A stretch of 64,000 nt of DNA from positions 22,729 through 86,728 of the forward strand of contig CAIQQJ010000131.1 in NCBI GenBank assembly GCA_903873905.1, read 5' to 3'. Below, piece by piece: positions 12,143-58,540 of the stretch. The translations under genes and the position numbers were made by a program. A model generated the notes under the pieces. The model did not search any database and was not told the DNA's origin. It saw nothing but the letters and a program-made list of their open reading frames with translations. Source of the stretch: an uncultured Flavobacteriales bacterium. Its GTDB lineage: Bacteria; Bacteroidota; Bacteroidia; Palsa-965. Position 1 is the stretch's first letter; each line of letters begins with the position of its first letter.

Positions 12143-12294
12143 AAAATACCATCCACTCCAATGTCAGCTAAGGTCGTTATATATGTTAGCGAGAGATATG
12201 ATATAAATCATGTTTGCTGCTCCTAAATATTGTGAAATTTGAGAAAAAGATACCTCTAAAATTTGAATTTTTGAAGCGGTTCGAAAAAAAATAA

Positions 12295-20038: not shown

Positions 20039-20731
20039 TTAAATCCCTTTGGGACATAAACCCAACACTTCCTTTTTATTCCAAGAAGAACACCCAGGGA
20101 ACTTGCTGCATGTTGCGTAAATATCGCAGCTACTTTTTACGCGACTTACTTTCTTGTAGGTAGCTGCAGGAGTAAGATCAAATTTTATCCCTTGCTGTTT
20201 CAAAATGCGTTTCGCATTCCAAACTGAATACGCCACCACTACAATGAAAACAGAAAAAAATATGTACAAGTACAGCAATGGATTTTCAAAAAGCATTGCG
20301 TGTGTTTTGGGCGTGTTTGATTGGGCAATTACAGGAGGAACAGCAAGTTTTGCTTTTTCCTTTTCTGCTGCCACGGCAAGACCTGTATTGGTAATGTAGC
20401 TAAACACTGCTTTCATTTCAGGTTCCGTAAGTTTCTGATCCGGCATTGGAATTTTGAATTGATCAAACAATGCTTTTGCATCTGCATCCCCGCTTGCAAT
20501 GAAAGTGGTAGAACTTTTCACCCATTTCAAAAGCCATGCTTCAGGTCGTTTTGTTGTTACTCCTGAAAGATCTGGCCCGACCAAGCGACCTTTTCCTATT
20601 GTGTGGCAGGATCCACAATTATTTTTGAAAGTGGCTTCACCATCCTGAGCAATACCTGAAAACGGAAAAAGAAACAATAAAGCGATCACAAATGCAACAA
20701 CGTTTTTAGTCAACTTTTTTGAAAAACTCAT
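20039..20731 (-). CDS. membrane-anchored mono-heme c-type cytochrome
   Basis: 230-aa ORF. Signal peptide. CGSCH heme-binding motif. A C-terminal TM helix and a Cys-rich tail. Confidence 0.7.
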   Translation of the reverse strand: MSFSKKLTKNVVAFVIALLFLFPFSGIAQDGEATFKNNCGSCHTIGKGRLVGPDLSGVTTKRPEAWLLKWVKSSTTFIASGDADAKALFDQFKIPMPDQKLTEPEMKAVFSYITNTGLAVAAEKEKAKLAVPPVIAQSNTPKTHAMLFENPLLYLYIFFSVFIVVVAYSVWNAKRILKQQGIKFDLTPAATYKKVSRVKSSCDIYATCSKFPGCSSWNKKEVLGLCPKGI

Positions 20732-20851
20732 TTTGTTTTTTTTTGAATTGTTTTTGGAAAAACTTGAATTTATTTTTTGTGAATCTTAATTATCACCCTA
20801 ACAAATTTCAAAATATGATTTATATCAAACAATGATTCGCCTCATGCTTTT

Positions 20852-20865
20852 ATGATTTAAATCAT
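20852..20865. promoter_or_regulatory. FNR/Crp-type box ATGATTTAAATCAT (TGAT-N4-ATCA core)
   Basis: Perfect 14-bp palindrome, 127 bp upstream of the minus-strand cytochrome c start and 320 bp upstream of the narK-like gene. Confidence 0.6.
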
Positions 20866-22671: not shown

Positions 22672-22759
22672 AATAATGGATTTTTTACCTGCAATTTTCA
22701 AGTAGAAAATCTAAAAACCCAAAACAATTTTCGAATTTTCAAAACATGACCATGGTCAC

Positions 22760-22771
22760 TGATTTAAATCA
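22760..22771. promoter_or_regulatory. FNR/Crp-type box TGATTTAAATCA
   Basis: Same palindrome as at 20852 and 33222. Lies in the intergenic region between the narK-like gene and the FeS-subunit gene. Confidence 0.55.
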
Positions 22772-23000
22772 TATTTATGGATAATTCGCGTCATTTATTA
22801 AAAACCCAAAGTGTGTCATTTTTGAATTGACATAAACGTTGATTACGTCAATAAAAAAGCCAATTCTAGTCCGTTTTTCAAAACTTGTCATTGATTATAA
22901 TTTTTACACAGTTTGACAATCTTTGAGTTTTCTGGCCTCCGTTCTTTCAATCCATCATCCTATAAGTAAATTCACCTTTTCCACTCCAAAAGCTTTCCAC

Positions 23001-23090
23001 AAAAATGATTTACATCACTGAGTAAAATCATAATCCCGTCTGATTCGAGTCATAGTTTGAAAATAATAATGTAGGGAAATTTGGTCCGTT
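23001..23090 (+). promoter_or_regulatory. conserved about 90-nt promoter/leader element, copy A
   Basis: Roughly 75-80% identical to 29987-30076: ATGAT.TA.ATCACTGAG.A.AATCAT.ATC.CGTCTG...GAaTCATAGTTTGAAAAT.AT.AT..GT.GGAAATTTG.T.CGGTT. Confidence 0.6.
23006..23017. promoter_or_regulatory. FNR/Crp-type box TGATTTACATCA at the head of conserved leader element A
   Basis: TGAT-N4-ATCA, followed about 35 nt later by CATAGTTTG (Bacteroidota -7-like TAnnTTTG motif). 213 bp upstream of the FeS-subunit gene. Confidence 0.55.
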
Positions 23091-23229
23091 GATGCCGCTC
23101 AAGTGAAAATCCAATCAAAACTCTACAGTCTTTAACAAATCGAATTCAATATTTACGCTCATTAATTATCGCAATTCCATCACCGCATAAAATCAATAAC
23201 GTTTCTACCGAAAAGTAATATTTCTAATT

Positions 23230-24204
23230 ATGGAAGATCAAAACAAAAACAATGAAGACAACAAAACTCCTGAATCGAATGAGTCAGGCAGACGCGACTT
23301 CCTGAAATTTGGAGTGCTTGCGGCTGGGCTAACTGTAGCAGGTGTTGGTCTTCAGAAAGTTTTTTCTGGCGAAAAGAATTCCGACGAAAAAGCTTCTGGT
23401 GAGAAAGTGAAAGTCCTCACCACAGATGGAAAACTCATTGAAGTATATGCTGCGGATGTCAAAAAAGCCGATGCATGTTGTGTTCCTTCAGCGGAAGCGC
23501 GTCAAGGAATACCAGGGAAGAAATTTGTAATGGTGATCGATTTATCACGTTGCAAAGACGCTTTGAAATGTCAAAAATCTTGTGAAAAACATCACCAACT
23601 TCCTGAACAGGATAAATGGTTGAAGGTTTTCAAAATGCAAGAATCAGAAGAAACAGCTCCTTACTGGATGCCAAAACCATGTTTCCATTGTGACCACCCA
23701 CCTTGTGTTAAAGTTTGTCCTGTTGATGCAACTTTTAAAAGAACAGATGGAATAGTTTTAGTTGACAATGAACGTTGCATCGGTTGCAGATTCTGCATGG
23801 CAGCTTGTCCATATTCTGCCCGTGTATTTAACTGGTCAGAACCTGTAACTCCAGCTAGACATGAAAATGACACCTATTCTCCAGAAACAAGCACCCCAAG
23901 AAAAAAAGGTACTGTTGAGAAATGTGACTTCTGTCCAGATGTAATTAGACAAGGTAAACTTCCACATTGCGTTACTGCTTGTCCAAATGGTGTTTATTAT
24001 TTCGGTGATCAAAATGAGGACACCGTTACCAATGGAGACACAACAGTTCGCTTAAGCCAATTGCTAAGAGACAAAGCTGGTTACAGATATTTGGAATCTC
24101 TTGGAACCGAACCTAGCGTTTATTATCTCCCTGCTGCCAATCGAATATTCCCATTCAAAGACAGGGAAATTAAAGATGAAAAGAAGGAAGAATCCAAAAG
24201 CTAA
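23230..24204 (+). CDS. Tat-exported 4x[4Fe-4S] ferredoxin-type subunit (NrfC/PsrB/NosG-like)
   Basis: 324-aa ORF. RRDFLKFG twin-arginine signal. Four Cys clusters (CFHCDHPPCVKVCP, CIGCRFCMAACPY, CDFC...CVTACP, plus one atypical first cluster). Confidence 0.8.
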   Translation: MEDQNKNNEDNKTPESNESGRRDFLKFGVLAAGLTVAGVGLQKVFSGEKNSDEKASGEKVKVLTTDGKLIEVYAADVKKADACCVPSAEARQGIPGKKFVMVIDLSRCKDALKCQKSCEKHHQLPEQDKWLKVFKMQESEETAPYWMPKPCFHCDHPPCVKVCPVDATFKRTDGIVLVDNERCIGCRFCMAACPYSARVFNWSEPVTPARHENDTYSPETSTPRKKGTVEKCDFCPDVIRQGKLPHCVTACPNGVYYFGDQNEDTVTNGDTTVRLSQLLRDKAGYRYLESLGTEPSVYYLPAANRIFPFKDREIKDEKKEESKS

Positions 24205-24259
24205 GGGATTAAGCTGAAGAAAAATTAATTGTCAATTAATAAATGAATAGCTCACAAAT

Positions 24260-25639
24260 ATGAAAGACATAATAAAACCAAAAGATGACGCTGAAGCAAT
24301 ACAAATGTTGCATCAGTTTAACGAGGACTTGCTGCCAAAGAAATTTGGTAAGATTGGTGTGACTTGGACCATATTTCTTTGCCTTGTAATTGCAAATGGA
24401 CTTTTTTGTTATTACAAACAATTAAAATTTGGATTGAGTGTAACTGGTTTGGGAGATCAAGTTTCCTGGGGTATTTACATTTCCAATTTCGTTTTTTTCG
24501 TAGCGGTAAGTTTAGTTGGTTCCTTGATCACAGCTGTACTTTATTTGCTTAATGTAAATTGGCGATCACCATTAACGAGGATTGCAGAAGTAATTGCAGT
24601 GGCTTGTATCGTTTTCGCTGGCCTCATTATCATTGTTGATATGGGTCGTCCTGATCGAATTCTAAATATGTTTATTTATGGTAGAATTCAGTCGCCAATT
24701 GTTTGGGATGTAATAGTTGTAATGACTTATATGACAATAAGCGTTTTACTTCTTTATTTTCCTTTACTTCCTGGAATTGCTTTTTGCAGAGACCATCTCA
24801 AAAATATTCCTAAATGGCAAAAGTGGATGTATAAGTTTCTATCGTTTGGATGGAAATGGAATCCTGAACAATTCAAAATTGTAAAAAGGGCAATTACAAT
24901 TTTATCCGTTCTTATTATTCCTGTTGCGCTTAGTATTCACACCGTTACTTCCTGGTTGTTTGCTACAACATTCCGTCCGGGTTGGGATAGTACAAATTTT
25001 GGAGCCTACTTTGTTGCAGGTGCGTTTATGGTAGGAGCAGGTGCGGTAATTGCAGCCATGTATGTCCTCATAAAATTCTACCCACGTTACGATCAGTATA
25101 TCACAGATAAACATTTTGATCGTATGGGGAAACTTCTTGTACTTCTATCCTTGGTCTATATGTATTTTACCGTTAATGAATACATGATTCCCGGTTATAA
25201 AATGAAGGGTGAAGAAGCTGCCCATCTTACAGAATTATTTGTTGGAAAATATGCGCTAATGTTTTGGTCAGTTCAAATTTTCGGAATGATCATTCCTATT
25301 ATTCTTCTTATGTTCAAAAAATTCAGACGCCCTTTCCCAATGTTTGTCATTGCGATTTGTGTAATTGTTGGAGCGTGGTTTAAACGATTCCTTATTGTTA
25401 TTCCAACATTGCTTCACCCTTTCCTACCAATGCAGGAAATATCTGAATCAGCGAAATCTTATTCTCCAACCTATCCAGAGTGGTCCATCACCTTTGCTTC
25501 ATTGGCTGGCGCATTATTGATAATCACTGTCTTTATCCGCTATTTCCCTATTATTTCAATTTGGGAAGTTGCTGAAGAAAGAGGAATTGAACACGATGTT
25601 ATTTATAAACACTTAAACGAATTAAACGAAAAAGAATGA
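24260..25639 (+). CDS. NrfD/PsrC-family polytopic membrane quinol-interacting subunit
   Basis: 459-aa ORF with about 10 TM helices and an NrfD-like profile. Directly downstream of the FeS subunit. Confidence 0.8.
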   Translation: MKDIIKPKDDAEAIQMLHQFNEDLLPKKFGKIGVTWTIFLCLVIANGLFCYYKQLKFGLSVTGLGDQVSWGIYISNFVFFVAVSLVGSLITAVLYLLNVNWRSPLTRIAEVIAVACIVFAGLIIIVDMGRPDRILNMFIYGRIQSPIVWDVIVVMTYMTISVLLLYFPLLPGIAFCRDHLKNIPKWQKWMYKFLSFGWKWNPEQFKIVKRAITILSVLIIPVALSIHTVTSWLFATTFRPGWDSTNFGAYFVAGAFMVGAGAVIAAMYVLIKFYPRYDQYITDKHFDRMGKLLVLLSLVYMYFTVNEYMIPGYKMKGEEAAHLTELFVGKYALMFWSVQIFGMIIPIILLMFKKFRRPFPMFVIAICVIVGAWFKRFLIVIPTLLHPFLPMQEISESAKSYSPTYPEWSITFASLAGALLIITVFIRYFPIISIWEVAEERGIEHDVIYKHLNELNEKE

Positions 25640-26580
25640 AAAACTATCTAACATTTCAGATGCGGATATCTTCCCTTTTTTATTCGGCATTATCTTTGTT
25701 ATTCATTGGTGTATTCGTGCTAATGAGTAATAATGTAATGGCTCAAGACAAAAAGGATACGACCAAAATGTCTATTTCCATGAACGTGAGTTATAAAATT
25801 TCAGATGGAATAAAACACGTGAAAGTTCAAGCTACGCGAAAAGAAAATAAAAAAAATGTTTCCGTAGATAATGCAACTTCCCCTGTGTCTTTATACCTGA
25901 ATGAAGTAAAAGCTACAGATCCTTCAACTGGAGACGGACTTATCAGCAAACTTTTTCTTAATGAAGAAGGAGAAGTAACCTTTGATCTCCCTGCTAATTT
26001 TAATTCGCTCACATCTGGGTTACATGAATACACTTTCATTGCCCGTATGGAAGCAGATCCAATTTATCAAGAAGCAGAAGAACAAATTACCATTGCAGAT
26101 GCAAAAATCACTGTTGAATATTCCGGCAAGGATTCCATTAAAACGGCTACTGCTACACTAATGGAATGGAAAGACAGTGCGTACGTGCCTGTTCGTGATG
26201 CTGAATTGAAACTTTTCATTAAAAGAACATTCAGTTTATATCCTATTGGCGAAGAAGGAATTACTTCTGATTCACTCGGGCAAATAACATCGGAACTTCC
26301 TTTGGATATTCCTGGTGAGGCTGATGGCACAATAATTATTGTCGGCAGTGTGATCGATCATGAAACCTACGGAACTGTTGAAACAACAAATAAAGTGAAA
26401 TGGGCTGTTCTTCCAAAAGTCAATGCTGACATGGGTCGTACGCTTTGGTCTACAGGAAAAAATGCTCCTGTTCCATTAATTATTGCTTCTTGCACGATTA
26501 TTGCAATCATTTGGGGAACGATTATTTATCTAATTTTACAGCTGTTTAAAATCAGAAAAATCGGAAAACAAAAAGTGTAG
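25636..26580 (+). CDS. hypothetical periplasmic protein with N-terminal signal/anchor and C-terminal TM helix
   Basis: 314-aa ORF. Start overlaps the NrfD stop (ATGA), so translationally coupled. No cofactor motif recognised. Confidence 0.5.
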   Translation: MKNYLTFQMRISSLFYSALSLLFIGVFVLMSNNVMAQDKKDTTKMSISMNVSYKISDGIKHVKVQATRKENKKNVSVDNATSPVSLYLNEVKATDPSTGDGLISKLFLNEEGEVTFDLPANFNSLTSGLHEYTFIARMEADPIYQEAEEQITIADAKITVEYSGKDSIKTATATLMEWKDSAYVPVRDAELKLFIKRTFSLYPIGEEGITSDSLGQITSELPLDIPGEADGTIIIVGSVIDHETYGTVETTNKVKWAVLPKVNADMGRTLWSTGKNAPVPLIIASCTIIAIIWGTIIYLILQLFKIRKIGKQKV

Positions 26581-26617
26581 TAAACAATTTAACCATCAAA
26601 CTAAAAAAAACAAAATC

Positions 26618-27058
26618 ATGAAATCAAATCAAAAATCCGCAAATTTCGCCGCAATTACATCAGTTATTATTCTGTTTGCATTTGTTGGAATGTTAAGCAT
26701 GTCATTCGTTACCATTTCTACTACTGGTGATAAAAAACCATGGGTAGTTCCTGATAAAGATAAGGCAGTGAAAAACCCTGTTGCTTCCGATGCAACATCT
26801 ATTGCAGCTGGAAAAACTTTGTACACAAAACTTTGCAAATCATGTCATGGTGCTACTGGAAAAGGTGATGGTCCAAAATCAAAAGAATTGGAAACACCAA
26901 CAGGAAGCTTTCTGGATGCAACTTTTACTGCACAAACAGATGGAGAAGTTTTCTTCAAAGTAAGAAAAGGCAGAGATGATATGCCTGGTTTCTCTAAAGA
27001 AACAGAAGCTAATGATGTTTGGAATATCATTAACTATGTTCGCTCATTGAAAAAATAA
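26618..27058 (+). CDS. membrane-anchored class I c-type cytochrome (c6/c553-like)
   Basis: 146-aa ORF. N-terminal TM. CKSCHG heme motif. Distal Met region (DDMPGF). Confidence 0.75.
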   Translation: MKSNQKSANFAAITSVIILFAFVGMLSMSFVTISTTGDKKPWVVPDKDKAVKNPVASDATSIAAGKTLYTKLCKSCHGATGKGDGPKSKELETPTGSFLDATFTAQTDGEVFFKVRKGRDDMPGFSKETEANDVWNIINYVRSLKK

Positions 27059-27130
27059 TATTCTTGACTATTTTCCGAAGTGGAAAAATTAGGGAATAAT
27101 TAATTAAAGATTTTTTAACAAACGCTATAT

Positions 27131-28051
27131 ATGAAACTATCATTCTTTAATAGCACATTTAATGCAGCAAAAACATTTTTTGTTTTTGCTGCATTTGTGG
27201 CTACAACCGGTGTCGTACGTGCACAGGACGATTCAACCGCAACAGGCCCAGAACCTGTAACAAGAACTTTTCGCGGTCCTCAATTAATCAATATGCCTAC
27301 GAATGAAATCGTAGATGGTCTGACATTCGGAATTCAACACCGTTTCGGTCAGGTAATTGATAAGGACATTGCGTATGAGTTTTTGGGAATGGATCTTACA
27401 GCAAACATGCGTTTTTCACTTGGCTACCCTATCATTAAGGAAAGATTGATGGTCGAGCTAGGAAGAACCAAATTTGGAAAGAATATGGATCTAGAGGTAA
27501 AATGGCTTGCATTGAGACAGACAACAAAAAATGAAATGCCTATTTCCCTTACGATTTATGTGGATCCATCTTTATCGATGACAAGATTCCCAAAAGTTCC
27601 GAATTATGCATATTTTGGTGATAGCACCACAGTATTTAAATATACTGCTGCTTCTCGAATGGCATATAATTCTCAAATCATTATTTCAAGGAAGTTCAGC
27701 AAGAAATTCTCCTGCGAATTAGCTCCAACTTTTATTTACAGAAATTTGGTAGAGTCTTCAACTATTGATCATTATACAATGGCTTTGCAAGCTGGTGCAC
27801 GTTACAAGTTTTCAAGAGCTGGTTCTATTATGGTAGAATATGGTCATGCATTCAACAACAGAGACACCGCGACCGCCACTAAAACGGTTGATCCTCTTTC
27901 AATAGGAGTTGAATTCGGAACTGTAGCGCACGTATTTCAGATTGTAATGAGCTCTTCCAACAATCTTCTTGCTAGAGACATTTATACAACGAATGGTGTT
28001 GCTTATACCAAAGGACTTTTTGTAGGCTTCAATTTGAAACGTTTCTTTTAA
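27131..28051 (+). CDS. hypothetical outer-membrane beta-barrel protein
   Basis: 306-aa ORF. Signal peptide ending VRAQDD. Alternating amphipathic strands. C-terminal ...LKRFF, typical of OMP barrels. Confidence 0.45.
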   Translation: MKLSFFNSTFNAAKTFFVFAAFVATTGVVRAQDDSTATGPEPVTRTFRGPQLINMPTNEIVDGLTFGIQHRFGQVIDKDIAYEFLGMDLTANMRFSLGYPIIKERLMVELGRTKFGKNMDLEVKWLALRQTTKNEMPISLTIYVDPSLSMTRFPKVPNYAYFGDSTTVFKYTAASRMAYNSQIIISRKFSKKFSCELAPTFIYRNLVESSTIDHYTMALQAGARYKFSRAGSIMVEYGHAFNNRDTATATKTVDPLSIGVEFGTVAHVFQIVMSSSNNLLARDIYTTNGVAYTKGLFVGFNLKRFF

Positions 28052-28114
28052 CCACTAATAAATTCGAATCAATTCGAATTTGTCAATGAAAAAGAACCAA
28101 CTGAATAATGACTA

Positions 28115-28576
28115 ATGAAAATGAATCTCACTATGAAAAAATTAACTTTTAGCCCTATAAAGCTCATTTCTGGAATGACCGTGATCCTTGGATTATTGTT
28201 TGTTAGCTCCTGTAAAAAAGATGTTGGGCCAATTATCATACCTCCTGCAAATGCTCCTCCAGTGAGTTTTGCCTCTGAAATTCAACCAATCTTTACCACA
28301 AATTGTGCTGTAGGTGGTTGTCACGATGGTTCTGCATATGACCCAAATCTATCAGCTGGAGTAGCTTATGTTAATACTGTGAATGTTCCTGCTCCTTCTT
28401 ACGCTCCTTATTTTTTGATAAGACCAAGCAAGGCTGACAGCTCCGTTATTTATCATAAAATGTTGAACGATGATGCAGGTACTTATGGTGGCAAAATGCC
28501 TCCTGCTGGTGTTTTACCAGCAACTCAACTTGATCTATTGAAAACCTGGATCAACCAAGGTGCATTGAATAATTAA
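28115..28576 (+). CDS. lipoprotein with a Cys-X4-Cys-His motif (putative cytochrome-c-like / metal-binding domain)
   Basis: 153-aa ORF. Lipobox LFVSSC. IQPIFTTNCAVGGCHDG resembles planctomycete-cytochrome-C-type domains but with CX4CH spacing. Confidence 0.5.
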   Translation: MKMNLTMKKLTFSPIKLISGMTVILGLLFVSSCKKDVGPIIIPPANAPPVSFASEIQPIFTTNCAVGGCHDGSAYDPNLSAGVAYVNTVNVPAPSYAPYFLIRPSKADSSVIYHKMLNDDAGTYGGKMPPAGVLPATQLDLLKTWINQGALNN

Positions 28577-28584
28577 TTGCCTTC

Positions 28585-28626
28585 ACTACAACATTGATTT
28601 TTTTAATTAAAAATCAATGTTGTAGT
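28585..28626 (+). terminator. long perfect hairpin downstream of the CX4CH lipoprotein gene
   Basis: ACTACAACATTGATTTTT-TTAATT-AAAAATCAATGTTGTAGT: 18-bp perfect arms and no clear U-tract. Could be a terminator or an RNA-processing / regulatory structure. Confidence 0.5.
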
Positions 28627-28713
28627 ATAACACAACTATTTTTGTACCGTTCAGTGATAAATCAAAGTTTGTTTCAAAATTGAAAAAATAAATAAAAACT
28701 AAAAACTAAAAAC

Positions 28714-29490
28714 ATGAGAAAAATTACACTCTTTGCTATTTCGAGTATTATTTTGGTTGTGGCTATGTCCAGTAGCGCTGGAAAAGCTGGTAAGACAGGT
28801 TCTCCAGGTGAAAGCACCTGTATGGGATGCCATGGTGACTTTCCAATAAATACAGGTGGAGGAACTATTGCGATTACCTCTAATATCCCTGGCTCTTATA
28901 TTGCTGGAACCACCTATACAGTCAGCGTTACAGTAAGCCAAACTGCAATGCCTTTGTTTGGTTTCGATTTCGAGGCACTCAATTCGGCAAATGCCAATGC
29001 TGGTACCCTTGCTGCTGGTAGCGACTCGCATATTATGATATCAGGCGGAAAAAATAACATGGTCCATTTGACAGATGGTGGTCTAACCACCGGTACTCAT
29101 ACTTTCACCTTCAACTGGACAGCTCCAAGTGCAGGTGCTGGAACAGTTACATTCTATGCTTCCGGAATTTGTGCAGATAATAGTGGAGATGAAACGGGTG
29201 ACTATGTGCATACTACATCAGTGGCTATTCCTGAAAACCCATTGAGTGTTGCTCAAAATTCTTCTGAGCCAACGCTTAATGTTTACCCAACTGTTTCTAA
29301 CGGAACTTTCACAATTCAGAATAATGTAAATTATGATTTGTCAATTTACAACGTTACTGGAGAAGAAGTTTTCGCAAAAACTGTTGATGCTAATCTTGAA
29401 ACAGTGAATCTGAATGTACCAACAGGAATGTATTTTGTGTACATCAAATCAGAAAACAAAACAACATTGAAGAAAATCATTGTTCAGTAA
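28714..29490 (+). CDS. T9SS-secreted surface protein with N-terminal CxxCH-containing domain and Por_Secre_tail C-terminal sorting domain
   Basis: 258-aa ORF. Signal peptide. CMGCHG motif. C-terminal roughly 75 aa (LNVYPTVSNGTFTI...MYFVYIKSENKTTLKKIIVQ) match the T9SS CTD pattern. Confidence 0.75.
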   Translation: MRKITLFAISSIILVVAMSSSAGKAGKTGSPGESTCMGCHGDFPINTGGGTIAITSNIPGSYIAGTTYTVSVTVSQTAMPLFGFDFEALNSANANAGTLAAGSDSHIMISGGKNNMVHLTDGGLTTGTHTFTFNWTAPSAGAGTVTFYASGICADNSGDETGDYVHTTSVAIPENPLSVAQNSSEPTLNVYPTVSNGTFTIQNNVNYDLSIYNVTGEEVFAKTVDANLETVNLNVPTGMYFVYIKSENKTTLKKIIVQ

Positions 29491-29626
29491 TTCTAAATCT
29501 TCGGTAGGATTAATAAACTATTAAATTATTAAGCAGCCGAGTGCAAAATAAATTCATTAGCATTTAGCGCAAAAAGCTTCTTGCCAAATGAAAACTTAAG
29601 AAGTGCTGATTTAAAAATCAAAAAAA

Positions 29627-29658
29627 AGATTCCGGGGTTTCCGGAATCTTTTTTTTTG
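29627..29658. terminator. rho-independent terminator
   Basis: AGATTCCGG-GGTTT-CCGGAATCT stem plus TTTTTTTTT, with an upstream A-run (bidirectional potential). Confidence 0.7.
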
Positions 29659-29986
29659 TAAGTTTTATCATTAAAAAAATGCCCAAAACAATCGTGGTTC
29701 ATTGGCAAATCGGAGTTGGAAAACGAAAAATGAAAGTCGTTTTAATTTTCGGTTCTTGACAATCAAAATCTAAAAAATCTCTATGTTCCCTTTTTGATTT
29801 TTTTAGCCATTTCCACAAAGAACGTTTAATCAATAAAACACTGGTTTTCCAAGGCGGTTATTCTTCTTGTATAAATCCTATTGCTGTGGAATGCAATTCT
29901 GCAGAACCAAATTCCCCTTGTGGATTTACTCCGCAAAAAAATCATCTGAAAAAGTTCACCCATATTGGGCTCCATTGACCTTTTTG

Positions 29987-30076
29987 CAGTATGATCTATA
30001 TCACTGAGAACAATCATGATCTCGTCTGTACTGAATCATAGTTTGAAAATGATTATCAGTGGAAATTTGTTTCGGT
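29987..30076 (+). promoter_or_regulatory. conserved about 90-nt promoter/leader element, copy B
   Basis: Paralogue of 23001-23090. Directly upstream of the 940-aa T9SS/SprB-repeat protein gene. Confidence 0.6.
29992..30003. promoter_or_regulatory. FNR/Crp-type box TGATCTATATCA at the head of conserved leader element B
   Basis: TGAT-N4-ATCA, followed about 36 nt later by CATAGTTTG. 134 bp upstream of the 940-aa T9SS protein gene. Confidence 0.55.
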
Positions 30077-30136
30077 TATTAATTCAAAAGTCAATCAAAA
30101 TAAATCAAAAATCAATCTGTTTAAACTCTACCAATT

Positions 30137-32959
30137 ATGAAAAAATTAATCGTTGCATCTACAGCTTTTGCAGCTCTTCTGCTGATAGCTTTCGGCTCAA
30201 TGACTCAACAAGCTGATGCGAGAAGTAAAAAAACACCTCCCTCTGGCTATTCTGGCGGTCCTGGAGATGGCCCTGGTGGCAGAACATGTTGGACCGGCTG
30301 TCACAACAACTACAGTCAAGCCTTCAACAAACCTGGTTGGATCACTTCTGATATTCCCGTTACAGGATATGTACCAGGAGCAACTTACAACATCACCATT
30401 CACAGCAATTCTAAAGGATACAGACACGGTTTTGAGGCAAGTTGCCAAACCAATGCTGGTGTATTCCAAGGAACATTAATTGGCAACGATTCCACTCAGG
30501 TAATTGTTGACCCTACTGTTACTAGCAAACAATGGATTGCACAAATGGATTCCATGCGCGCTTTGTCTATGGTACCTCCAGTTTCAACCAGTCTTGGTTA
30601 TCATGGTAATGGAAATGCTTCAGTTACTTTCAACACCAAAGCATGGACATTTAAGTGGGTTGCTCCATCAGCAGGAACAGGCGATGTTACTTTCTACATG
30701 GCGACTGTAGCAACCAACAACAATAATGACGACCATGCAGCTCCTTACCAACAAACATCTTGGGCTGGTGATTCCGTGTTTAGTTCAACTCTTCCTCTCT
30801 TTGAAAATACAACATTAAGCATCGGAAGTGTTACAAAACCATGTAATGGAAATAACGGTTCTGCAACTGTAAATGCTACTTATGGAACTGCACCATATAC
30901 CTATTCTTGGAATTCATCACCTGTGCAAACAACACAAACAGCAACCAACCTTGGAGCTGGAACTTATACAGTTGTTGTAACAGACGCATTGTCATCCGTT
31001 AAAACATTGACTTTTACATTACAAAACAAGATAAAAGCAATTATCAACGACCAAAACATTCCAGTATGTAATAATGGAACAATCACCCATACAGTAGTTC
31101 CAATTGGAACAGGTCCTTTCACTTATTTGTGGGCACCTTCTGGTGGAACAGCTGCTATTTCAACAGCTTTGGCTGCTGGTACATATTCAGTAACAGTAAC
31201 AGATGCGGCTACTTGCGCAACTACATTAACAGTTACCACAACAAACAACCCTCCAATGCACATTTGGTTTTTCGATTGGCAGGACAGTGCTGTAACACGC
31301 AATGGTGGTGCAAATGGTTATGCTAAAATACAACGTGAGTTTGCTCCAAGTGGATCAGTTTACACTTATGCATGGAATCCAGCAATTGGTATTCAAGGAC
31401 AATTCCAAGATAGTTTGACTGCACAAACCTACACTTGCACAGTAACAAACACCCATTCTGTTTGTCCAACACAGGTTGTTGCAGCTACAGTTACAATTAC
31501 ACAACCAACTGTACTTACTGCATCTGTTACTGCTTCAAACAATGGATGCAATAGCGCGAATAGCGGTTCTGCAACAGTCACTGCTGCTGGAGGAACTCCA
31601 CCTTACACTTATCTATGGAGTAATGGTCAAACTTCAGCTACAGCAACAGGTTTAGCTCCTGGAACGTATACTTGTACCATTACACACAGAGGTGTTTATG
31701 CAACATCACAAGATGTACCTGCACTACAACGTGCGGTTTCTGCTGTCGGTTCTTGGTCTATTACTAAAACTGTAACTATTTCTGCTCTTTCTGCAAGTAT
31801 TGCTCCTCCAACAAATCCAACATGTTTTGGTGGAACAGGAAGCGCTACTGTAACTCCAGTAGGCGGAACAGCACCATACACTTACTTGTGGAGTCCTTCA
31901 GGCGGAACAGCTGCAACAGCAACTGGTCTAGCTGCAGGTTCTTACACTTGTACAATCACTGATGCAAATGGATGTGTTGTTTCTGCAAACAGAACTTTGG
32001 TTCAACCAGGAGCACTTCTTGGATCTGCATCAACAGTTAGTCCTTTATGCAATGGAGACAACAACGGATCTGCAACAGTTGTTGCAGGTGGCGGAACTCC
32101 AACATACACTTACCTATGGGCACCTTCAGGAGCAACAACCGCAACTTCAAGCGGACTTGTAGCAGGTTCTTACACTTGCACAATCACTGATGCTTACGGA
32201 TGTACAACAGCTGTAAATACAACTGTGGCTGAACCAGGAGTTCTTGTTGGATCAGGATCAACTGTTAGTCCTTTATGTAATGGTGGAAATGGAACTGCAA
32301 CAGTTTATGCTGGTGGCGGAAATCCTTTGTACACTTACCTATGGGCACCTTCAGGCGGAACAGCTGCAACAACAACTGCAGTTCCTGCAGCAACATACAC
32401 TTGCACAATCACTGATGCAAACGGCTGTACAACTACTGTAAGCAATACAATCAATGAGCCTGCAGCTTTGACAACATTAATGGGAACTACAAGTGAGTAT
32501 TTCGCAGCTAATGGAACTGCAACAGCATATCCTTCAGGTGGAACAGCTCCATATTCATTCTTATGGGCTCCAACAGGTGGAACTGCACAAGTTGCATCAG
32601 GTCTTGTTGCCGGAACATACTCTGTAACAGTTACAGACGTAAATGGTTGCACAGTTACTAATTCAGTAGTTGTTACTTCTGTTGTTGGTGTATCTTCAAT
32701 TGATGCAGACAACTCTATCAATGTATTCCCAAATCCAAACTCTGGTGAATTTGATATGGTTTTGAATGCTACTGAAAATACCAATTACACAATTGTACTT
32801 ACAAACGTACTTGGACAAGTTGTTTACACTGAAACGCTTGAAAACTTCAGCGGAAACTACACCAAACACTTTGATGTAAATTCAAATGGTAAAGGTGTTT
32901 ATCTGATGAGCGTACGCAGTGCAAATCATCAAGTTGTTCGCAAGATTGTTGTTTACTAG
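30137..32959 (+). CDS. large T9SS-secreted adhesin-like protein: N-terminal CX3CH domain, about 8 SprB-type repeats, and Por_Secre_tail CTD
   Basis: 940-aa ORF. Signal peptide. CWTGCH motif. The N-domain is homologous to that of the 28714..29490 product (shared ...W(T/V)APSAG(A/T)G(T/D)VTFY...). Repeats GGT.PYTYLW.PSGGT...GL.AG.YTCTITDANGC. CTD ...VFPNPNSGEF...KIVVY. Confidence 0.85.
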   Translation: MKKLIVASTAFAALLLIAFGSMTQQADARSKKTPPSGYSGGPGDGPGGRTCWTGCHNNYSQAFNKPGWITSDIPVTGYVPGATYNITIHSNSKGYRHGFEASCQTNAGVFQGTLIGNDSTQVIVDPTVTSKQWIAQMDSMRALSMVPPVSTSLGYHGNGNASVTFNTKAWTFKWVAPSAGTGDVTFYMATVATNNNNDDHAAPYQQTSWAGDSVFSSTLPLFENTTLSIGSVTKPCNGNNGSATVNATYGTAPYTYSWNSSPVQTTQTATNLGAGTYTVVVTDALSSVKTLTFTLQNKIKAIINDQNIPVCNNGTITHTVVPIGTGPFTYLWAPSGGTAAISTALAAGTYSVTVTDAATCATTLTVTTTNNPPMHIWFFDWQDSAVTRNGGANGYAKIQREFAPSGSVYTYAWNPAIGIQGQFQDSLTAQTYTCTVTNTHSVCPTQVVAATVTITQPTVLTASVTASNNGCNSANSGSATVTAAGGTPPYTYLWSNGQTSATATGLAPGTYTCTITHRGVYATSQDVPALQRAVSAVGSWSITKTVTISALSASIAPPTNPTCFGGTGSATVTPVGGTAPYTYLWSPSGGTAATATGLAAGSYTCTITDANGCVVSANRTLVQPGALLGSASTVSPLCNGDNNGSATVVAGGGTPTYTYLWAPSGATTATSSGLVAGSYTCTITDAYGCTTAVNTTVAEPGVLVGSGSTVSPLCNGGNGTATVYAGGGNPLYTYLWAPSGGTAATTTAVPAATYTCTITDANGCTTTVSNTINEPAALTTLMGTTSEYFAANGTATAYPSGGTAPYSFLWAPTGGTAQVASGLVAGTYSVTVTDVNGCTVTNSVVVTSVVGVSSIDADNSINVFPNPNSGEFDMVLNATENTNYTIVLTNVLGQVVYTETLENFSGNYTKHFDVNSNGKGVYLMSVRSANHQVVRKIVVY
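30842..32702 (+). repeat. in-frame array of about 8 SprB-type repeats (roughly 80-90 aa each) inside the 940-aa T9SS protein gene
   Basis: Recurring NG.NGSATV.A.GGT.PYTYLW.PSGGT.A...GL.AG.YTCTITDANGC at the protein level, with matching nucleotide periodicity. Confidence 0.75.
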
Positions 32960-34624: not shown

Positions 34625-35431
34625 ATGAAAATTTCCGCGTCGACAAAAATATCGGCACTGCTAAAATTCAATCCAGCTTCCCTGGAAGCAATTGTTTCCA
34701 TTAACAAACATTTCGAAAAGCTGAGAAATCCTGTTTTACGAAAAGTTCTTGCGTCGCGCGTCACAATTGCTGAGGCTGCAAAAATTGGAAAATGCAGTAT
34801 TGATATTTTTTTCGATAAACTAAAAGCGATTGGATTTGAAATAGAAAACAATCGTGATAAAATAAATATGAAAATGAATCCTATTCCTGAATTTGTAAAT
34901 ACATCCACTGAATCCAACACAACAGAACTTGATGTTCGAGAGGAAATTCGTAATGGACGCGATCCTTTTCAGATCATCATGAAAGCCATTGATGAGCTTC
35001 CGGAAAATTTTACGTTGTTGCTTATCAATTCCTTCGAGCCTGTTCCGCTGATCAAGATTTTAAACAACAAAGGTTTTTTGCATTTTGTAAAATACCAGGA
35101 GGATGGAGCTGTTTATACTTACCTGAAAAAGCAGGACGCAAATTCTCCTATGAAAATTGAAATTCCCGTAAATGATTCTTCGTCCGAATTCATTTCATTG
35201 TTCAAACAGTATTGCGGTAAACTAAAAACGATTGACGTAAGGAATCTGGAAATGCCATTACCCATGACAACGATTCTTGGAGAACTTGAAAGCCTGCCAA
35301 ATGACATGGCGCTGTTTGTTCATCACAAAAAAGTTCCTCAGTTTTTATTTCCAGAATTACAGGAAAGAAATTTCAAATGGTCAATAGAAGAAAAAACTGC
35401 GGATGAAGTTGATTTATTAATTTACAAATAA
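34625..35431 (+). CDS. DUF1858/DUF2249-type domain protein (NO-response-associated, function unknown)
   Basis: 268-aa ORF. N-terminal ISALLKFNPASLEAIVSINKHFEKLRNPVLRKVL resembles DUF1858. Central VREEIRNGRDPFQIIMKAIDELP resembles DUF2249. Confidence 0.5.
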   Translation: MKISASTKISALLKFNPASLEAIVSINKHFEKLRNPVLRKVLASRVTIAEAAKIGKCSIDIFFDKLKAIGFEIENNRDKINMKMNPIPEFVNTSTESNTTELDVREEIRNGRDPFQIIMKAIDELPENFTLLLINSFEPVPLIKILNNKGFLHFVKYQEDGAVYTYLKKQDANSPMKIEIPVNDSSSEFISLFKQYCGKLKTIDVRNLEMPLPMTTILGELESLPNDMALFVHHKKVPQFLFPELQERNFKWSIEEKTADEVDLLIYK

Positions 35432-36720
35432 TGCAAGGCAAGGGAACAACGAAAGGGCCATCACCGAGTGTTGTTCTCCCCCACTTTATTTTCGGGGCGC
35501 TTTCATTTTTCATTGTGACACTTCTGCTTGTACTTTCACCAGAGATTTTTTCCGGGCATTATTTCCAGCCAAAACTTTTAACAATCACACACATCAGCAT
35601 TTTGGGTTGGGGCGTAATGATCATTTTCGGTTCCATCTATCAGCTGTTGCCTGTGTTGTTGGAAACACCATTGTATAGTGAAGCACTGGCGAAAATCACA
35701 TTCCTCGCGCTAGCAACAGGAATACTATTGATTGCCTATTCCTTTTGGAATTTTTATGTGGGAATTCAACTTGAAATTGCTTCTGGATTTCTCTTGACAT
35801 CCTTCATACTTTTTTCGATCAACATTTTCACTACTGTTCGCAGATCAAAAAAGAATTCCAACGAAAGTGATTTTATTTCCACTGCGGTGATTTGGCTTTT
35901 ATTTACGGGAAGTCTTGGTTTATTAATGGCTTGTAATTTTACACATCCTTTTCTCACCAAATCTCATTTGTTGTTTTTGAAAATCCACGCGCACATGGGA
36001 ATTGCGGGTTGGTTTATTTTATTGATCATGGGAGTGGCTTCAAAATTAATTCCCATGTTTTTACTTTCGCAAAACCTAAATCAGAAAAAACTTACTGCTG
36101 CTTATTATTTTGTCAATGCAGGCCTGATTGGATTTATCGTTGACCAATTCTTTTTTGAAGGAAGTATTATTTCACCGCTATTTGCACTACTAATCATTAG
36201 TGGTGTTTTATGTTTCATTTCATTCACCTTCGAAGCTTACAAAAAAAGAGTTCGAAAGATTCTGGACATTGGATTGAAACACTCCTTCACAGCGATTCTT
36301 GTTTTATTCCTACCCCTTATTCTGGGTGGCATTCTAAGTTTCATTCATTCACCTGACAGCCCATTTCTATTAAGAATTTATCTGATTTACGGAACCTCCA
36401 TTTTTCTTGGATTTATTTCTTCCTTGATTTTGGGACAATCCTTTAAGACGCTTCCCTTTATTGTGTGGTTGCACAAACATGGAAATAATGCGGGAGGTGG
36501 AAAAGCTCCTTTACCGAAAGATTTTTATTCTGAAAAATTAGCACAAGCCCAATTCGTAATTTACCTTGTGGCACTTACAACGCTACTTACCGGAATATTA
36601 TTTGCAATTCCTACAGTGATAAGAATAGGTTCAATACTTTTGCTTGTAACTGCAATGCTCTATAATCTCAATATCTTTAAGATTATTTTCATAAACGCCA
36701 AATCATCAAAATTAATTTAG
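35431..36720 (+). CDS. nnrS: polytopic membrane protein, NnrS-like (NO-responsive heme-copper membrane protein family)
   Basis: 429-aa ORF with about 12 TM helices and conserved His in TMs. Sits among NO-stress genes (RIC, DUF1858, norCB), the usual context for NnrS. The family call rests mainly on topology and context. Confidence 0.45.
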   Translation: MQGKGTTKGPSPSVVLPHFIFGALSFFIVTLLLVLSPEIFSGHYFQPKLLTITHISILGWGVMIIFGSIYQLLPVLLETPLYSEALAKITFLALATGILLIAYSFWNFYVGIQLEIASGFLLTSFILFSINIFTTVRRSKKNSNESDFISTAVIWLLFTGSLGLLMACNFTHPFLTKSHLLFLKIHAHMGIAGWFILLIMGVASKLIPMFLLSQNLNQKKLTAAYYFVNAGLIGFIVDQFFFEGSIISPLFALLIISGVLCFISFTFEAYKKRVRKILDIGLKHSFTAILVLFLPLILGGILSFIHSPDSPFLLRIYLIYGTSIFLGFISSLILGQSFKTLPFIVWLHKHGNNAGGGKAPLPKDFYSEKLAQAQFVIYLVALTTLLTGILFAIPTVIRIGSILLLVTAMLYNLNIFKIIFINAKSSKLI

Positions 36721-37695: not shown

Positions 37696-38415
37696 CTAAC
37701 TTTTTTGACTTGCCAACTCTCTCAATTCAGCTTCTTTCTTGACAAGAATTGTTTTTTTATCTAATTCGATCAGATTCATTTCTTGAAGTTGGAACAAACT
37801 GCGAATAGCTGTTTCATACGTTGTGCCTGCAATATTCGCAATATCTTTTCTACACAAGGTAAAACTCAATTTGGTTTTTTCCGTTTCATGATAACCAAAA
37901 GCATCTACCAACATAATGATGATGTCTGCCACTCTCAATTTCACATCATGGTGAATCATGTTCTTCATCCGCTCTTCTGATTCATGCAACTCCGTAGCGA
38001 AAAAATTAATCATGAACATTCCAAATTCAGGATTTGCTTTTATTAATTTCAGGAAAATCTCAATCGGAATAAATATGGTTGTACATTCCGTCAAAGCCAC
38101 AGCCGAAACCGTAAAGTTGGGATGTGCCATTGCACGATGACCAAGAATTTTGCCCTCTGCCGCCAACCTTAAAATACGTTCATTGTTTTTGTCATACCGT
38201 GAAACAACTTTTGCCTTTCCACTGATCAAAAGGTAAACTCCGTCCATCACATCCCCCTCATTAAAAATTCGCTCACCAACCTTAAAAGACTGATTACGCT
38301 TATATAAATTAATTAACGGAATCCATTCCGATGAACAATATTTTGGAAAAAACAATTCCCAAAAAACAGATTTCTTGCTATTAATGTTTTTCACTCGTTC
38401 GTCTTTAGTATTCAT
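37696..38415 (-). CDS. Crp/Fnr-family transcriptional regulator
   Basis: About 239 aa from the ATG at 38413-38415 (the ORF-track start at 38427 is a TTG). cNMP-binding-like beta-roll (GDVMDGVYLLISGKAKV). C-terminal HTH (RKDIANIAGTTYETAIRSL). Confidence 0.75.
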   Translation of the reverse strand: MNTKDERVKNINSKKSVFWELFFPKYCSSEWIPLINLYKRNQSFKVGERIFNEGDVMDGVYLLISGKAKVVSRYDKNNERILRLAAEGKILGHRAMAHPNFTVSAVALTECTTIFIPIEIFLKLIKANPEFGMFMINFFATELHESEERMKNMIHHDVKLRVADIIIMLVDAFGYHETEKTKLSFTLCRKDIANIAGTTYETAIRSLFQLQEMNLIELDKKTILVKKEAELRELASQKS

Positions 38416-38419
38416 CCTG

Positions 38420-38438
38420 TGTGACAAATTAATTCACA
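38420..38438. promoter_or_regulatory. Crp-like inverted repeat TGTGA-N9-TCACA
   Basis: TGTGACAAATTAATTCACA immediately upstream of (overlapping the TTG alternative start of) the minus-strand Crp-family regulator gene. Candidate autoregulatory operator. Confidence 0.4.
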
Positions 38439-38905: not shown

Positions 38906-39655
38906 ATGCACAGCAAACTGAAGAAACACGAGGCCCCAAACTGCGAAAATTGTACAGAACGAGGAAGTTCAATTTTTTGCGATTTGCACGCCACGGATTT
39001 GAATAAGCTCTCTGAACACAAGGCTTATAACACTTACAAAAAAGGGCAATCTATTTTTCTTGAAGGAAATCAACCACAAGGCTTATTCTGTATTTATTCG
39101 GGAAAAGTTAAAATTCACAAGTTTGGTGATGATGGAAAAGAGCAGATCGTACGATTTGCCAGAAAAGGAAATGTACTTGGATACCGCGCATTATTGAGTG
39201 GTGGTGCCTATTTCGCAACTGCAACAGCCTTAGAAGAAACAACAGTTTGCTTTTTTCCGAAAGCAATTTATATGCAGGTCCTTTTGGCCAATCCAGACTT
39301 ATGCTTGCAAACTATCAAACTTCTTGCTTCAGATTTGAAAATGGCGGAACATTTGATGACCAACATGGCACAGAAACATGTGAGAGAACGAATTGCAGAA
39401 GCATTGATTTTATTAATAGAATATTACGGTCTAGAAGATGACAATGTGACGATCAATACTATTCTTACTCGGGAAGATATCGGAAATATGGTTGGAACAA
39501 CAACGGAAACTTCCATCCGAGTATTATCGGATTTCAATAAAGAAAAAATTATTCGACTTGCAGGGAAGAGAATTGGAATTCTTAATCTCGAACAACTTGA
39601 AAAGGTTGCGAATGTTTCTTTGAAACCAAATTCTGATCAAAAACCCAATAAATAA
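38906..39655 (+). CDS. FNR-like Crp/Fnr-family regulator with N-terminal Cys cluster
   Basis: 249-aa ORF. N-terminal CENCTERGSSIFC (C-x2-C-x8-C, as in the FNR [4Fe-4S] ligands). cNMP-like domain. HTH (REDIGNMVGTTTETSIRVL). Confidence 0.75.
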   Translation: MHSKLKKHEAPNCENCTERGSSIFCDLHATDLNKLSEHKAYNTYKKGQSIFLEGNQPQGLFCIYSGKVKIHKFGDDGKEQIVRFARKGNVLGYRALLSGGAYFATATALEETTVCFFPKAIYMQVLLANPDLCLQTIKLLASDLKMAEHLMTNMAQKHVRERIAEALILLIEYYGLEDDNVTINTILTREDIGNMVGTTTETSIRVLSDFNKEKIIRLAGKRIGILNLEQLEKVANVSLKPNSDQKPNK

Positions 39656-39742: not shown

Positions 39743-40450
39743 ATGGAGAGAAACAATTTACCAAAACTGGGTTGTTCCAATTGTAAAATCCGGAATATTT
39801 CTCTCTTCGCAAACGGATTGTCAGACTCTCATTTTGAATTATTTGCTGAAAAGAAAGAATTGGTTTTCAAAAAAGGAGAAAAACTAATTTCTGATGGAGA
39901 TGAATTCAAAGGCTTTTTTTGCATCCAAAGCGGAACAATAAAAATTTACAAGCCAATCAATAACAAGAATGATTTTATTCTCTGGTTTGCCAAACCTGGT
40001 GAGTCCATTGGTATAGATTCTTTTTTCAATAATGAAAATTATCAATACTCCGCTTCGGCAACAGGTATTGTGAAGGCCTGTTTTTTCAGTGCCCCAAAAA
40101 TAAATGAGCTGATGCAAAATGGATCAGTTACATACATGCGGCTGATGGAATATTTTTGTGAGCGAATTGACTTCATAGAAAAAAGAATTACAAGCATTGC
40201 CCAAAAAAAAACAAAGTCACATTTGGCAGAACTTCTTATTGCCCTACGAAATGATGAAACGGCGGATGAAAAAGAAACAAATATTGATTACAGCATAAAG
40301 GATTTAGCAAACATTATCGGTACAACCCAAAACTATTTATACAAAATTTCCTCTGAACTCATAAAGGAAAAAATCATTTCATTCGAAAGGAAGAAGCTGA
40401 AAATTCTGGATTTGGAAAAATTGTCGATTCTTGCAAAAGGAGCAAAATAA
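39743..40450 (+). CDS. FNR-like Crp/Fnr-family regulator with N-terminal Cys pair
   Basis: 235-aa ORF. N-terminal GCSNCKIRNISLF. cNMP-like domain. HTH (IKDLANIIGTTQNYLYKIS). Confidence 0.7.
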   Translation: MERNNLPKLGCSNCKIRNISLFANGLSDSHFELFAEKKELVFKKGEKLISDGDEFKGFFCIQSGTIKIYKPINNKNDFILWFAKPGESIGIDSFFNNENYQYSASATGIVKACFFSAPKINELMQNGSVTYMRLMEYFCERIDFIEKRITSIAQKKTKSHLAELLIALRNDETADEKETNIDYSIKDLANIIGTTQNYLYKISSELIKEKIISFERKKLKILDLEKLSILAKGAK

Positions 40451-40541
40451 TACTCCTATTTTTGTAATAGACGAAACTGTCACTTTTTATGAAATCATTT
40501 ATTCCATATCTCGTTTTTTAAACCCGACAAATAGGATTTTT

Positions 40542-57278: not shown

Positions 57279-57280
57279 TT

Positions 57281-58496: not shown

Positions 58497-58540
58497 AATA
58501 TTAAAAAAGTCAAAAAAATAAATCACAAATTCCAAATTCA

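Follow-up and report, generated by a model that had tools for sequence, protein, structure and literature searches.

In Escherichia coli, FNR recognizes sites of the form TTGAT-N4-ATCAA, and in class II promoters the site is centred at -41.5 while the -10 hexamer starts at -12 (PMC3688515). Bacteroidota promoters of the sigma-A type carry a -7 element, TAnnTTTG, and a -33 TTTG (PMC7366714, PMC2483708), and the former has been described as centred at -7 (PMC7366714). In Dinoroseobacter shibae, FnrL and three Dnr proteins control denitrification (PMC5398030). Putative mobile promoters constitute a further related group: stretches of 50-100 nt with at least 80% identity, located before non-homologous genes (Matus-Garcia, Nijveen and van Passel 2012, PMC3488235).

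The locus described here comes from an uncultured Bacteroidota MAG, and the window (the whole stretch of DNA analysed, 64,000 nt) contains an intergenic repeat whose two best-conserved copies are referred to as copies A and B. With a probability of roughly 0.8, both are paralogous versions of one composite promoter that requires an activator and acts as DNA and not as RNA. Oxygen- or nitric-oxide-sensing FNR-type regulators probably switch the module on.

Genomic setting

The window covers an anaerobic-respiration/denitrification island with anaerobic and NO-related genes (Table 1); identical loci are present in GCA_026391895.1, GCA_947469805.1, and several metagenome assemblies. Copy B heads its own transcription unit, because a strong terminator-like hairpin separates it from the FeS operon. 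The haem-copper oxidase-type gene might, as a guess, encode a nitric-oxide reductase. FNR is the best family match of all three Crp/Fnr regulators, and regulator 2 could be aligned with the solved Aliivibrio FNR (5cvr) from the N-terminal C-x2-C through the recognition helix (ETSIR vs ETISR). Each of the regulator genes also carries a box, spaced N23 from a TAnnTTTG. Judged from these features, the three proteins are candidate binders of the boxes described below.

Table 1. Positions of promoter elements and genes in the window; promoter starts and box centres are predicted
Feature	Position	Strand	Remarks
U32/UbiU-like protein	12295
Hemerythrin	17601
Cytochrome c	20039-20731	-
Fourth, diverged copy	20865-20793	-	Promoter of the cytochrome c gene 20731-20039; boxes 20853-20864, 20833-20844, 20816-20827; GAAATTTG at 20809-20802, N23 from the middle box
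NarK-family transporter	21187
Third, diverged copy	22747..22836	+	Distal FeS-operon promoter; -7 motif 22817-22824
Copy A box 1, TGATTTACATCA	23006..23017	+	Exact TGATnnnnATCA; predicted centre ~-76.5
Copy A box 2, TGAGTAAAATCA	23019..23030	+	One mismatch to box; predicted centre ~-63.5; 22 bp upstream of box 3
Copy A box 3, TGATTCGAGTCA	23041..23052	+	Box at class II position; predicted centre ~-41.5; GAAATTTG exactly 23 nt after
Copy A predicted -7 element, GAAATTTG	23076..23083	+	N23 from box 3; predicted start ~23088
Weakly conserved A-rich block, AAAATCCAATCAAAA	23106..23120	+	Copy A, predicted 5' UTR; from A/B alignment
Tat-signal 4Fe-4S (DsrO/NrfC-like) protein	23230..24204	+	First gene after copy A
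FeS operon	23230-29490		Tat 4Fe-4S, NrfD-type, 314-aa, cytochrome c, DUF5777, 153-aa, T9SS 'choice-of-anchor V'
258-aa T9SS protein	28714-29490		Operon end
Intrinsic-terminator-like hairpin	29620..29656	+	17-bp stem, then T run
Copy B box 1, TGATCTATATCA	29992..30003	+	Exact TGATnnnnATCA
Copy B box 2, TGAGAACAATCA	30005..30016	+	TGAG....ATCA, as in copy A
Copy B box 3, TGTACTGAATCA	30027..30038	+	Degenerate, 6/8 half-site positions; N23 then GAAATTTG
Copy B predicted -7 element, GAAATTTG	30062..30069	+	N23 from box 3; predicted start ~30074
940-aa SprB-repeat T9SS protein	30137..32959	+	Gene after copy B
RIC/YtfE di-iron protein	33668
Crp/Fnr regulator 1	37696-38427	-
Crp/Fnr regulator 2	38906-39655	+
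Crp/Fnr regulator 3	39743-40450	+
Cytochrome c, then haem-copper oxidase subunit I family protein	40431-42292		Weak cbb3 CcoN match

Extent and identity of the repeat

A repeat search recovered an ungapped match between 23005-23093 and 29991-30079 with 76% identity. Under gapped local alignment of the two intergenic regions, the similarity widens to 22957-23120 and 29941-30100, with a score of 51; 300 composition-preserving shuffles of both regions scored 15.0 +/- 1.9 (maximum 20). The repeat of copies A and B is real and far above chance. The original prediction had placed two segments of about 75-80% identity here, each opening with an FNR-type box, the first before a Tat-FeS/NrfD operon and the second before a 940-aa protein. 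All of these elements were recovered: both segments start with TGAT-N4-ATCA, the Tat-signal 4Fe-4S gene is followed by that of a NrfD-type membrane protein, and the 940-aa protein has SprB repeats, a T9SS tail, and a CWTGCH motif.

Identity is highest in the first 59 nt (23006-23064), where 48/59 positions (~81%) agree. Both copies carry TCATAGTTTGAAAAT and GGAAATTTG. The former, at 23050-23064 in copy A, is identical at 15/15 positions, overlaps a half-site of box 3, and contains a TTTG located 16 nt upstream of the -7 motif; an identical run of 15 nt lies within expectation at 76% identity. Its length of 15 nt exceeds that needed by any single known element. Weak similarity between the copies runs about 35 nt into the predicted 5' UTR (AAAAnnCAATCAAAA). 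Neither folding nor RNAalifold predicted a structure for the A-rich block AAAATCCAATCAAAA in this part.

Each copy contains three FNR-type palindromes (TGAn6TCA) followed by GAAATTTG. Box 1 has the same half-sites in A and B, with an N4 spacer that differs at 2/4 positions, and boxes 2 and 3 deviate from the box consensus by one to two mismatches. Box 3 is the least conserved; in copy B (TGTA....ATCA) it is in register with its counterpart in copy A. By contrast, conservation is perfect in boxes 1 and 2, which occupy non-canonical positions further upstream.

The window has 12 occurrences of the exact form TGATnnnnATCA, where 3.7 are expected; 0/100 shuffles reached this count. Nine of the 12 exact boxes are intergenic (intergenic DNA makes up 11.5% of the window), and these lie upstream of U32/UbiU-like, cytochrome c, FeS/NrfD, RIC, and Crp/Fnr genes. 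Such enrichment at a coherent regulon supports the FNR-type boxes as a real inverted-repeat motif and as predicted binding sites; the earlier reading of these boxes as FNR-type is borne out by this excess and by the three Crp/Fnr genes nearby. The view of both segments as a shared promoter is likewise supported.

Promoter geometry

The spacing between boxes and -7 elements was surveyed in 225 kb, comprising the FeS-operon loci of nine relatives (63-80% protein identity) and the present locus. For each box, in either orientation, the position of the following Bacteroidota -7-like nAnnTTTG was recorded; the background density of this motif is 0.0025 per position. With strict boxes, it was found at exactly 23 nt in 16/100 cases and at every other offset in at most 2. 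With loose, oriented boxes, offset 23 accounted for 21 of 254, and every other offset for at most 4. As the motif start sits N23 after the box, the distance from box centre to motif start amounts to 29.5 bp. This equals the distance from an FNR site at -41.5 to the start of a -10 hexamer at -12, and it also fits a TAnnTTTG centred at -7.

The conserved tail described in the original prediction is present in both copies, with GAAATTTG at N23 as the predicted -7. The tail (GGAAATTTG) is most likely the -7 element itself, since it lies exactly N23 from box 3, where the -7 motifs of the regulon occur; the assignment rests on this geometry. In two further promoters, the same GAAATTTG stands at N23: in that of U32, counted from the box at 12199, and in that of cytochrome c, counted from its middle box. 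Identical in A and B, it matches TAnnTTTG at 7/8 positions, the A and the TTTG among them; it deviates at the first base, a G where the consensus has T, and among the N23 promoters this base is T, G, or C. GCCCTTTG is the mutated counterpart of GAAATTTG in a -7 mutant design. The predicted transcription start, some 5 nt past GAAATTTG, probably marks the end of the conserved block; in copy B, 63 nt separate this start from the ATG at 30137. Measured from the -7 motif, box 3 is predicted to have exactly class II geometry, i.e., to be centred at -41.5 from the predicted start.

The original prediction had proposed CATAGTTTG (TAGTTTG) as the -7 element. The motif is indeed there, but its role was probably misassigned, as it is off the N23 distance; it lies most likely in the -33 region. 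It is possible that TAGTTTG serves as a -33 element, with a TTTG spacer of 16 nt. Among 64 candidate TAnnTTTG promoters of the surveyed genomes, no enrichment of a -33 TTTG was detected at any spacing. A scan for sigma-70-type promoters found nothing at the element; that promoter model is irrelevant for this phylum.

If TAGTTTG were nevertheless the -7 element, transcription would start near 23064 and 30050, and the GGAAATTTG...CGGTT tail would open a conserved 5' UTR containing an RNA attenuator, a thermosensor, or an sRNA target, or else a downstream operator bound by some other DNA-binding regulator. The 15/15 identity of TCATAGTTTGAAAAT is consistent with this layout, as is the reach of the similarity to 23120 and 30100; moreover, ATAGTTTG agrees with TAnnTTTG at 6/8 positions and would have box 2 placed 21 nt upstream, near class II spacing. 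That offset (N21), however, is used by at most 1/254 boxes, against 21 at offset 23, whereas the GAAATTTG of the tail is itself of the -7 type and stands at N23 from box 3, as in two other promoters of the window. The RNA side of the proposal fares no better. Folds of 23064-23125 and 30050-30105 gave z-scores of +0.20 and -0.09 with differing structures, and for four leader definitions plus the full element the z-scores ranged from -0.18 to +1.61, none being more stable than shuffles; the predicted folds differ between copies A and B. The RNAalifold consensus of three copies contained 0 pairs, a comparison in which two to four copies provide low covariation power. At gathering thresholds, Rfam matched only tRNA in the whole window; permissive E-value scans of both intergenic regions returned nothing overlapping the element, its tail included. 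The sRNA-like, attenuator, or thermosensor leader originally suggested finds no support in the Rfam, folding, and consensus-pair results, and the structure and covariation check proposed along with it came out negative within its low power. A conserved 5' UTR starting from TAGTTTG appears improbable.

Paired boxes in related genomes

Boxes of the surveyed loci recur in pairs. A box-to-box spacing of 22 bp was observed in seven instances from five genomes, against an expectation of about 0.07 per spacing, and in all seven a -7-like motif is located at N23 or N24 of the downstream box, facing the gene. Boxes 2 and 3 of copy A form one such pair. The orthologous FeS promoters of the relatives L072 and L076 contain others, in L072 as TGAGTATAATCA-N10-TGACGGAAATCA-N23-GACTTTTG, where TGAGTATAATCA occupies the same position as box 2 of copy A. 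Further 22-bp pairs belong to the promoters that drive a Crp gene and YceI operons (L072, L073, L074, and L076). Boxes 2 and 3 represent a putative two-dimer architecture (~-63.5 and ~-41.5) that is conserved across Bacteroidota genomes. No extended DNA similarity to the element was detected in relatives at 73-80% protein identity; the architecture alone is kept. By comparison, 13-bp pairs of the box 1 and box 2 type were seen in three cases, all in the window (22747, 23006, and 29992).

Further copies

Two more segments of the window share the arrangement. The third copy reads TGACCATGGTCA-c-TGATTTAAATCA-N10-TAATTCGCGTCA-N23-CATTTTTG and agrees with copy A in register at 47/90 positions, against a background of 24.9 +/- 4.3 (maximum 44) across 17,280 comparisons of intergenic DNA. 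As copy A follows 259 bp downstream, the FeS operon has tandem promoters, which also occur in the relatives L004 and L072. The fourth copy, in the promoter of the cytochrome c gene, was retrieved by nhmmer with a profile of A and B (E = 0.006). In 253 pairwise comparisons of box promoters, the A/B pair was a clear outlier, followed by the cytochrome c promoter. Of the further copies for which the original prediction had suggested a search, two diverged ones exist in the window, and what they keep in register are boxes and the -7 motif, not an RNA structure. The best explanation of these similarities is that the predicted module is present in at least four copies in the island: 20865-20793 (-), 22747, 23006, and 29992.

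Scans of larger collections, both without the source species (the element itself is unmatched in them), are uninformative on copies elsewhere in the source genome: a genome collection searched with TGATNNNNATCACTGAGNNNAATCA gave 11 matches, all in unrelated contexts (Ekhidna coding sequence or other phyla), and a metagenome collection searched with GTTTGAAAATN10GGAAATTTG gave 47, none of them element-like outside the pattern. Strain-level contigs (L006-L011) have an identical copy A and a copy B one SNP apart, which makes them too close for footprinting.

Descent and selection

Motif positions are conserved preferentially between A and B, with 27/30 identical vs 34/48 elsewhere (one-sided p = 0.04); for boxes 1 and 2 together with the -7 motif the figures are 22/22 vs 39/56 (p = 0.0016, post hoc). 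Within boxes 1 and 2, differences affect 4 of the 8 positions of the N4 spacers but no half-site position. Functional positions are tightly packed, as only 78 bp lead from box 1 to the -7 motif; conservation well beyond a single binding site, which the original prediction had emphasized, agrees with three boxes and a -7 motif within this distance. Since non-motif positions are still ~70% identical and the less conserved flanks align, common descent is favoured over convergence. Common descent, together with purifying selection on the half-sites and the -7 motif, probably offers the best explanation of the 76% identity.

The same non-motif identity and alignable flanks would also be expected of a neutral remnant, left by a recent segmental duplication or a MITE-like element and functionless past the first FNR box, and homologous upstream regions before unrelated genes are common in prokaryotes (PMC3488235). 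Such an origin is very improbable, as the half-sites and the -7 motif are the parts preferentially conserved, all four copies face a gene, no copy away from a gene start was found by nhmmer within the 64 kb, and the box-N10-box-N23 architecture recurs in other genomes without DNA homology. The MITE variant was rejected: the ends of the two copies share no terminal inverted-repeat pair. A short leader peptide acting in translation-coupled attenuation (ATG ATT TAC ATC ACT GAG ... from 23005 and 29991) is scarcely credible and was rejected: both copies open with ATG and two substitutions in the first six codons are synonymous (MIYITE), but MIYITE is kept over these six codons only, the frame comprises 6 codons in copy A and 16 in copy B, the ATG is part of box 1 and precedes the predicted start by about 80 nt, the two intergenic regions have no small ORF in common, and no terminator/antiterminator structure is predicted.

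The downstream genes provide a hint on the origin of the composite promoter copies. The 258-aa protein is paralogous to the N-terminal domain of the 940-aa protein, at 25% identity (E = 4e-11); the two carry the motifs CMGCH and CWTGCH, respectively. In relatives the T9SS gene precedes the FeS gene. Duplication of promoter plus gene, followed by rearrangement, is a plausible origin.

Proposed mechanism

In the proposed promoter, each copy would offer three Crp/Fnr-dimer sites, centred near -76.5, -63.5, and -41.5, followed by the Bacteroidota sigma-A -7 element GAAATTTG and a start about 5 nt further on, near 23088 or 30074. Low oxygen and/or nitric oxide would cause at least one of the three regulators, whose genes lie 8-10 kb downstream, to bind. 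The regulator bound at the class II position, aided by the upstream site two helical turns away, would then recruit RNA polymerase. The expected outcome is co-induction of the FeS/NrfD quinol-oxidoreductase operon and the secreted 940-aa protein. Points that count against this reading are the poor conservation of box 3 beside boxes 1 and 2, the G that opens GAAATTTG, the length of TCATAGTTTGAAAAT, the 16-nt spacing of the TTTG, and the weak similarity reaching into the predicted 5' UTR.

A bolder version, which is tentative and on balance unlikely, regards the box-c-box-N10-box array, with its overlapping sites 13 bp apart, as a species-specific signal-integrating module that was propagated four times and wires an uncharacterised respiratory system into a single switch. 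Here, different Crp/Fnr paralogues may compete or cooperate, for example one sensing O2, one sensing NO, and a third whose recognition helix is divergent. The wired system would combine a FeS/NrfD complex that oxidises quinol with 'choice-of-anchor V' proteins of the CxxCH/CX3CH type secreted through the T9SS, and it is possibly an extracellular electron-transfer pathway of Bacteroidota. In the same version, the short A-rich stretch conserved in the 5' UTR could act in addition as a signal for translation or for targeting by an sRNA.

Significance

The composite promoter provides a testable model, box-N10-box-N23-(-7 motif), for a denitrification island of uncultured Bacteroidota. It suggests that the unusual sigma-A promoter of Bacteroidota accommodates the class II geometry known from classical FNR promoters, with the TA of TAnnTTTG standing where TATAAT has its TA. 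Both the N23 and the 22-bp rule could aid the prediction of FNR-type regulons and starts in Bacteroidota genomes and MAGs. In particular, the N23 rule ties a widely conserved uncharacterised module (FeS, NrfD, a ~315-aa protein, cytochrome c, DUF5777, and T9SS haem-motif proteins) to putative anaerobic/NO control. The analysis does not reveal a new class of regulatory RNA; regulation appears to be of the ordinary DNA-level kind.

Comparison with known systems

The element resembles most closely the FNR/CRP class II and tandem-site (class III-like) promoters of Proteobacteria. Shared features are half-sites inverted around a 4-nt spacer, a distance of 29.5 bp from the box centre down to where the -10 equivalent begins, and, as in tandem-site promoters, a second site two helical turns upstream. 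Anaerobic-respiration targets are also in line with FNR systems, as is a regulator that has a Cys cluster at its N-terminus and a recognition helix of the E..R type. Unlike E. coli FNR promoters, it belongs to a Bacteroidota host, whose primary sigma factor reads TAnnTTTG and not TATAAT, and the half-sites, here putative, are TGAT, TGAC, or TGAG instead of strictly TTGAT. The extra box 13 bp upstream of box 2, where dimers would overlap, sets it apart from FNR/CRP promoters and is found in this species only.

The Fnr/Dnr cascade of Dinoroseobacter shibae is similar in having Crp/Fnr paralogues beside denitrification genes, palindromic boxes of a similar kind, and boxes at the regulator genes; phylum and promoter type are different. 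In common with putative mobile promoters, homologous upstream regions of 50-100 nt precede non-homologous genes of the same genome and IS/MITE features are lacking, but identity (76% over 89 nt, ~81% over 59 nt) is at or below the threshold of at least 80%, and the copies are not dispersed but sit together within a 10-kb stretch of a single regulon island. As in Bacteroidota sigma-A promoters, GAAATTTG has the invariant A and TTTG, with a TTTG upstream; the first base is G instead of T, the TTTG is 16 nt instead of ~20 nt away, and the promoter is apparently activator-dependent. Taken together, the element would work like a class II promoter of the FNR/CRP kind that is assisted by a helper site further upstream, built on a Bacteroidota sigma-A -7 and copied within one island much as putative mobile promoters are (PMC3488235), all of these being kinds already known.

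Boxes of the regulator genes and of the cytochrome c gene

All three Crp/Fnr regulator genes have their own FNR-type box, with a perfect TAnnTTTG, the Bacteroidota -7 motif, exactly 23 nt downstream of it (N23 spacing). As each gene carries this arrangement, auto-regulation or cascade regulation of the Crp/Fnr genes is suggested. The cytochrome c promoter, a diverged minus-strand copy of the repeated composite FNR-type promoter, contains a further, perfect box inside its N23 spacer, with a predicted centre near -24.5. Repression through this inner box is one possibility; another is that it serves a weaker second promoter, given that TAATTAAG is found at N23 from it.

Coordinates of the features in the window
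Feature	Position (nt)	Strand	Sequence
Regulator-gene box	38474	-	TAnnTTTG: TAAATTTG
Regulator-gene box	38844	+	TAnnTTTG: TATTTTTG
Regulator-gene box	39672	+	TAnnTTTG: TATTTTTG
Inner box, cytochrome c promoter	20816-20827		TGATATAAATCA
Fourth box-like sequence, copy A	23090-23101		TGATGCCGCTCA
Predicted 5' UTR repeats, 940-aa gene	30086-30115		(A)ATCAAAA
258-aa T9SS protein	28714-29490
N-terminal domain, 940-aa protein	30137-30900
Gene module	23230-29490, 30137-32959
429-aa protein	35431-36720
Tandem units	57280-57377		GTGATTGG / GTGATGAA / GTAATTAA
ORFs flanking the tandem units	56439-57278, 57474-58541

Variation within and next to the element copies

When the window is compared with six other contigs holding the locus, the sole difference within either element copy (copy A ahead of the FeS/NrfD operon, copy B ahead of the 940-aa gene) falls at 30024, where the window has G and all four contigs reaching copy B have T; the aligned base of copy A is G as well. 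A fourth box-like sequence occurs in copy A only, just 3' of the predicted start; at the matching place, 6 nt are deleted from copy B. In the 940-aa gene, the predicted 5' UTR carries (A)ATCAAAA three times, and copy A shares one of these repeats (CAATCAAAA); ATCAA is also the extended FNR half-site.

Other features

About 12 imperfect 8-nt tandem units lie between two ORFs. Elsewhere, a 429-aa protein has a weak, partial match only, to COX1 (haem-copper oxidase subunit I); its operon also holds RIC, DUF2249, DUF1858 and an Fe-S assembly protein, and the 429-aa product may represent a divergent NO-related membrane protein.

A possible respiratory gene module

The 258-aa T9SS protein is paralogous (E = 4e-11) to the N-terminal domain of the 940-aa SprB-repeat protein; where the former has the canonical haem c motif CxxCH (CMGCH), the latter has CX3CH (CWTGCH) instead. 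The gene module recurs across many Bacteroidota MAGs (FeS-operon loci L001, L004 and L070-L076), usually adjoining Crp/Fnr genes and downstream of FNR-type boxes. It is made up of a DsrO/NrfC-like FeS protein, an NrfD-like protein, a ~315-aa protein without a family match, a cytochrome c and DUF5777. Often it extends to a ~150-aa protein, to T9SS 'choice-of-anchor V' proteins and, among relatives, to YceI and EB_dh (PF09459) proteins. The module, whose gene content includes no obvious catalytic subunit, may be an as yet uncharacterised system for respiration or extracellular electron transfer.
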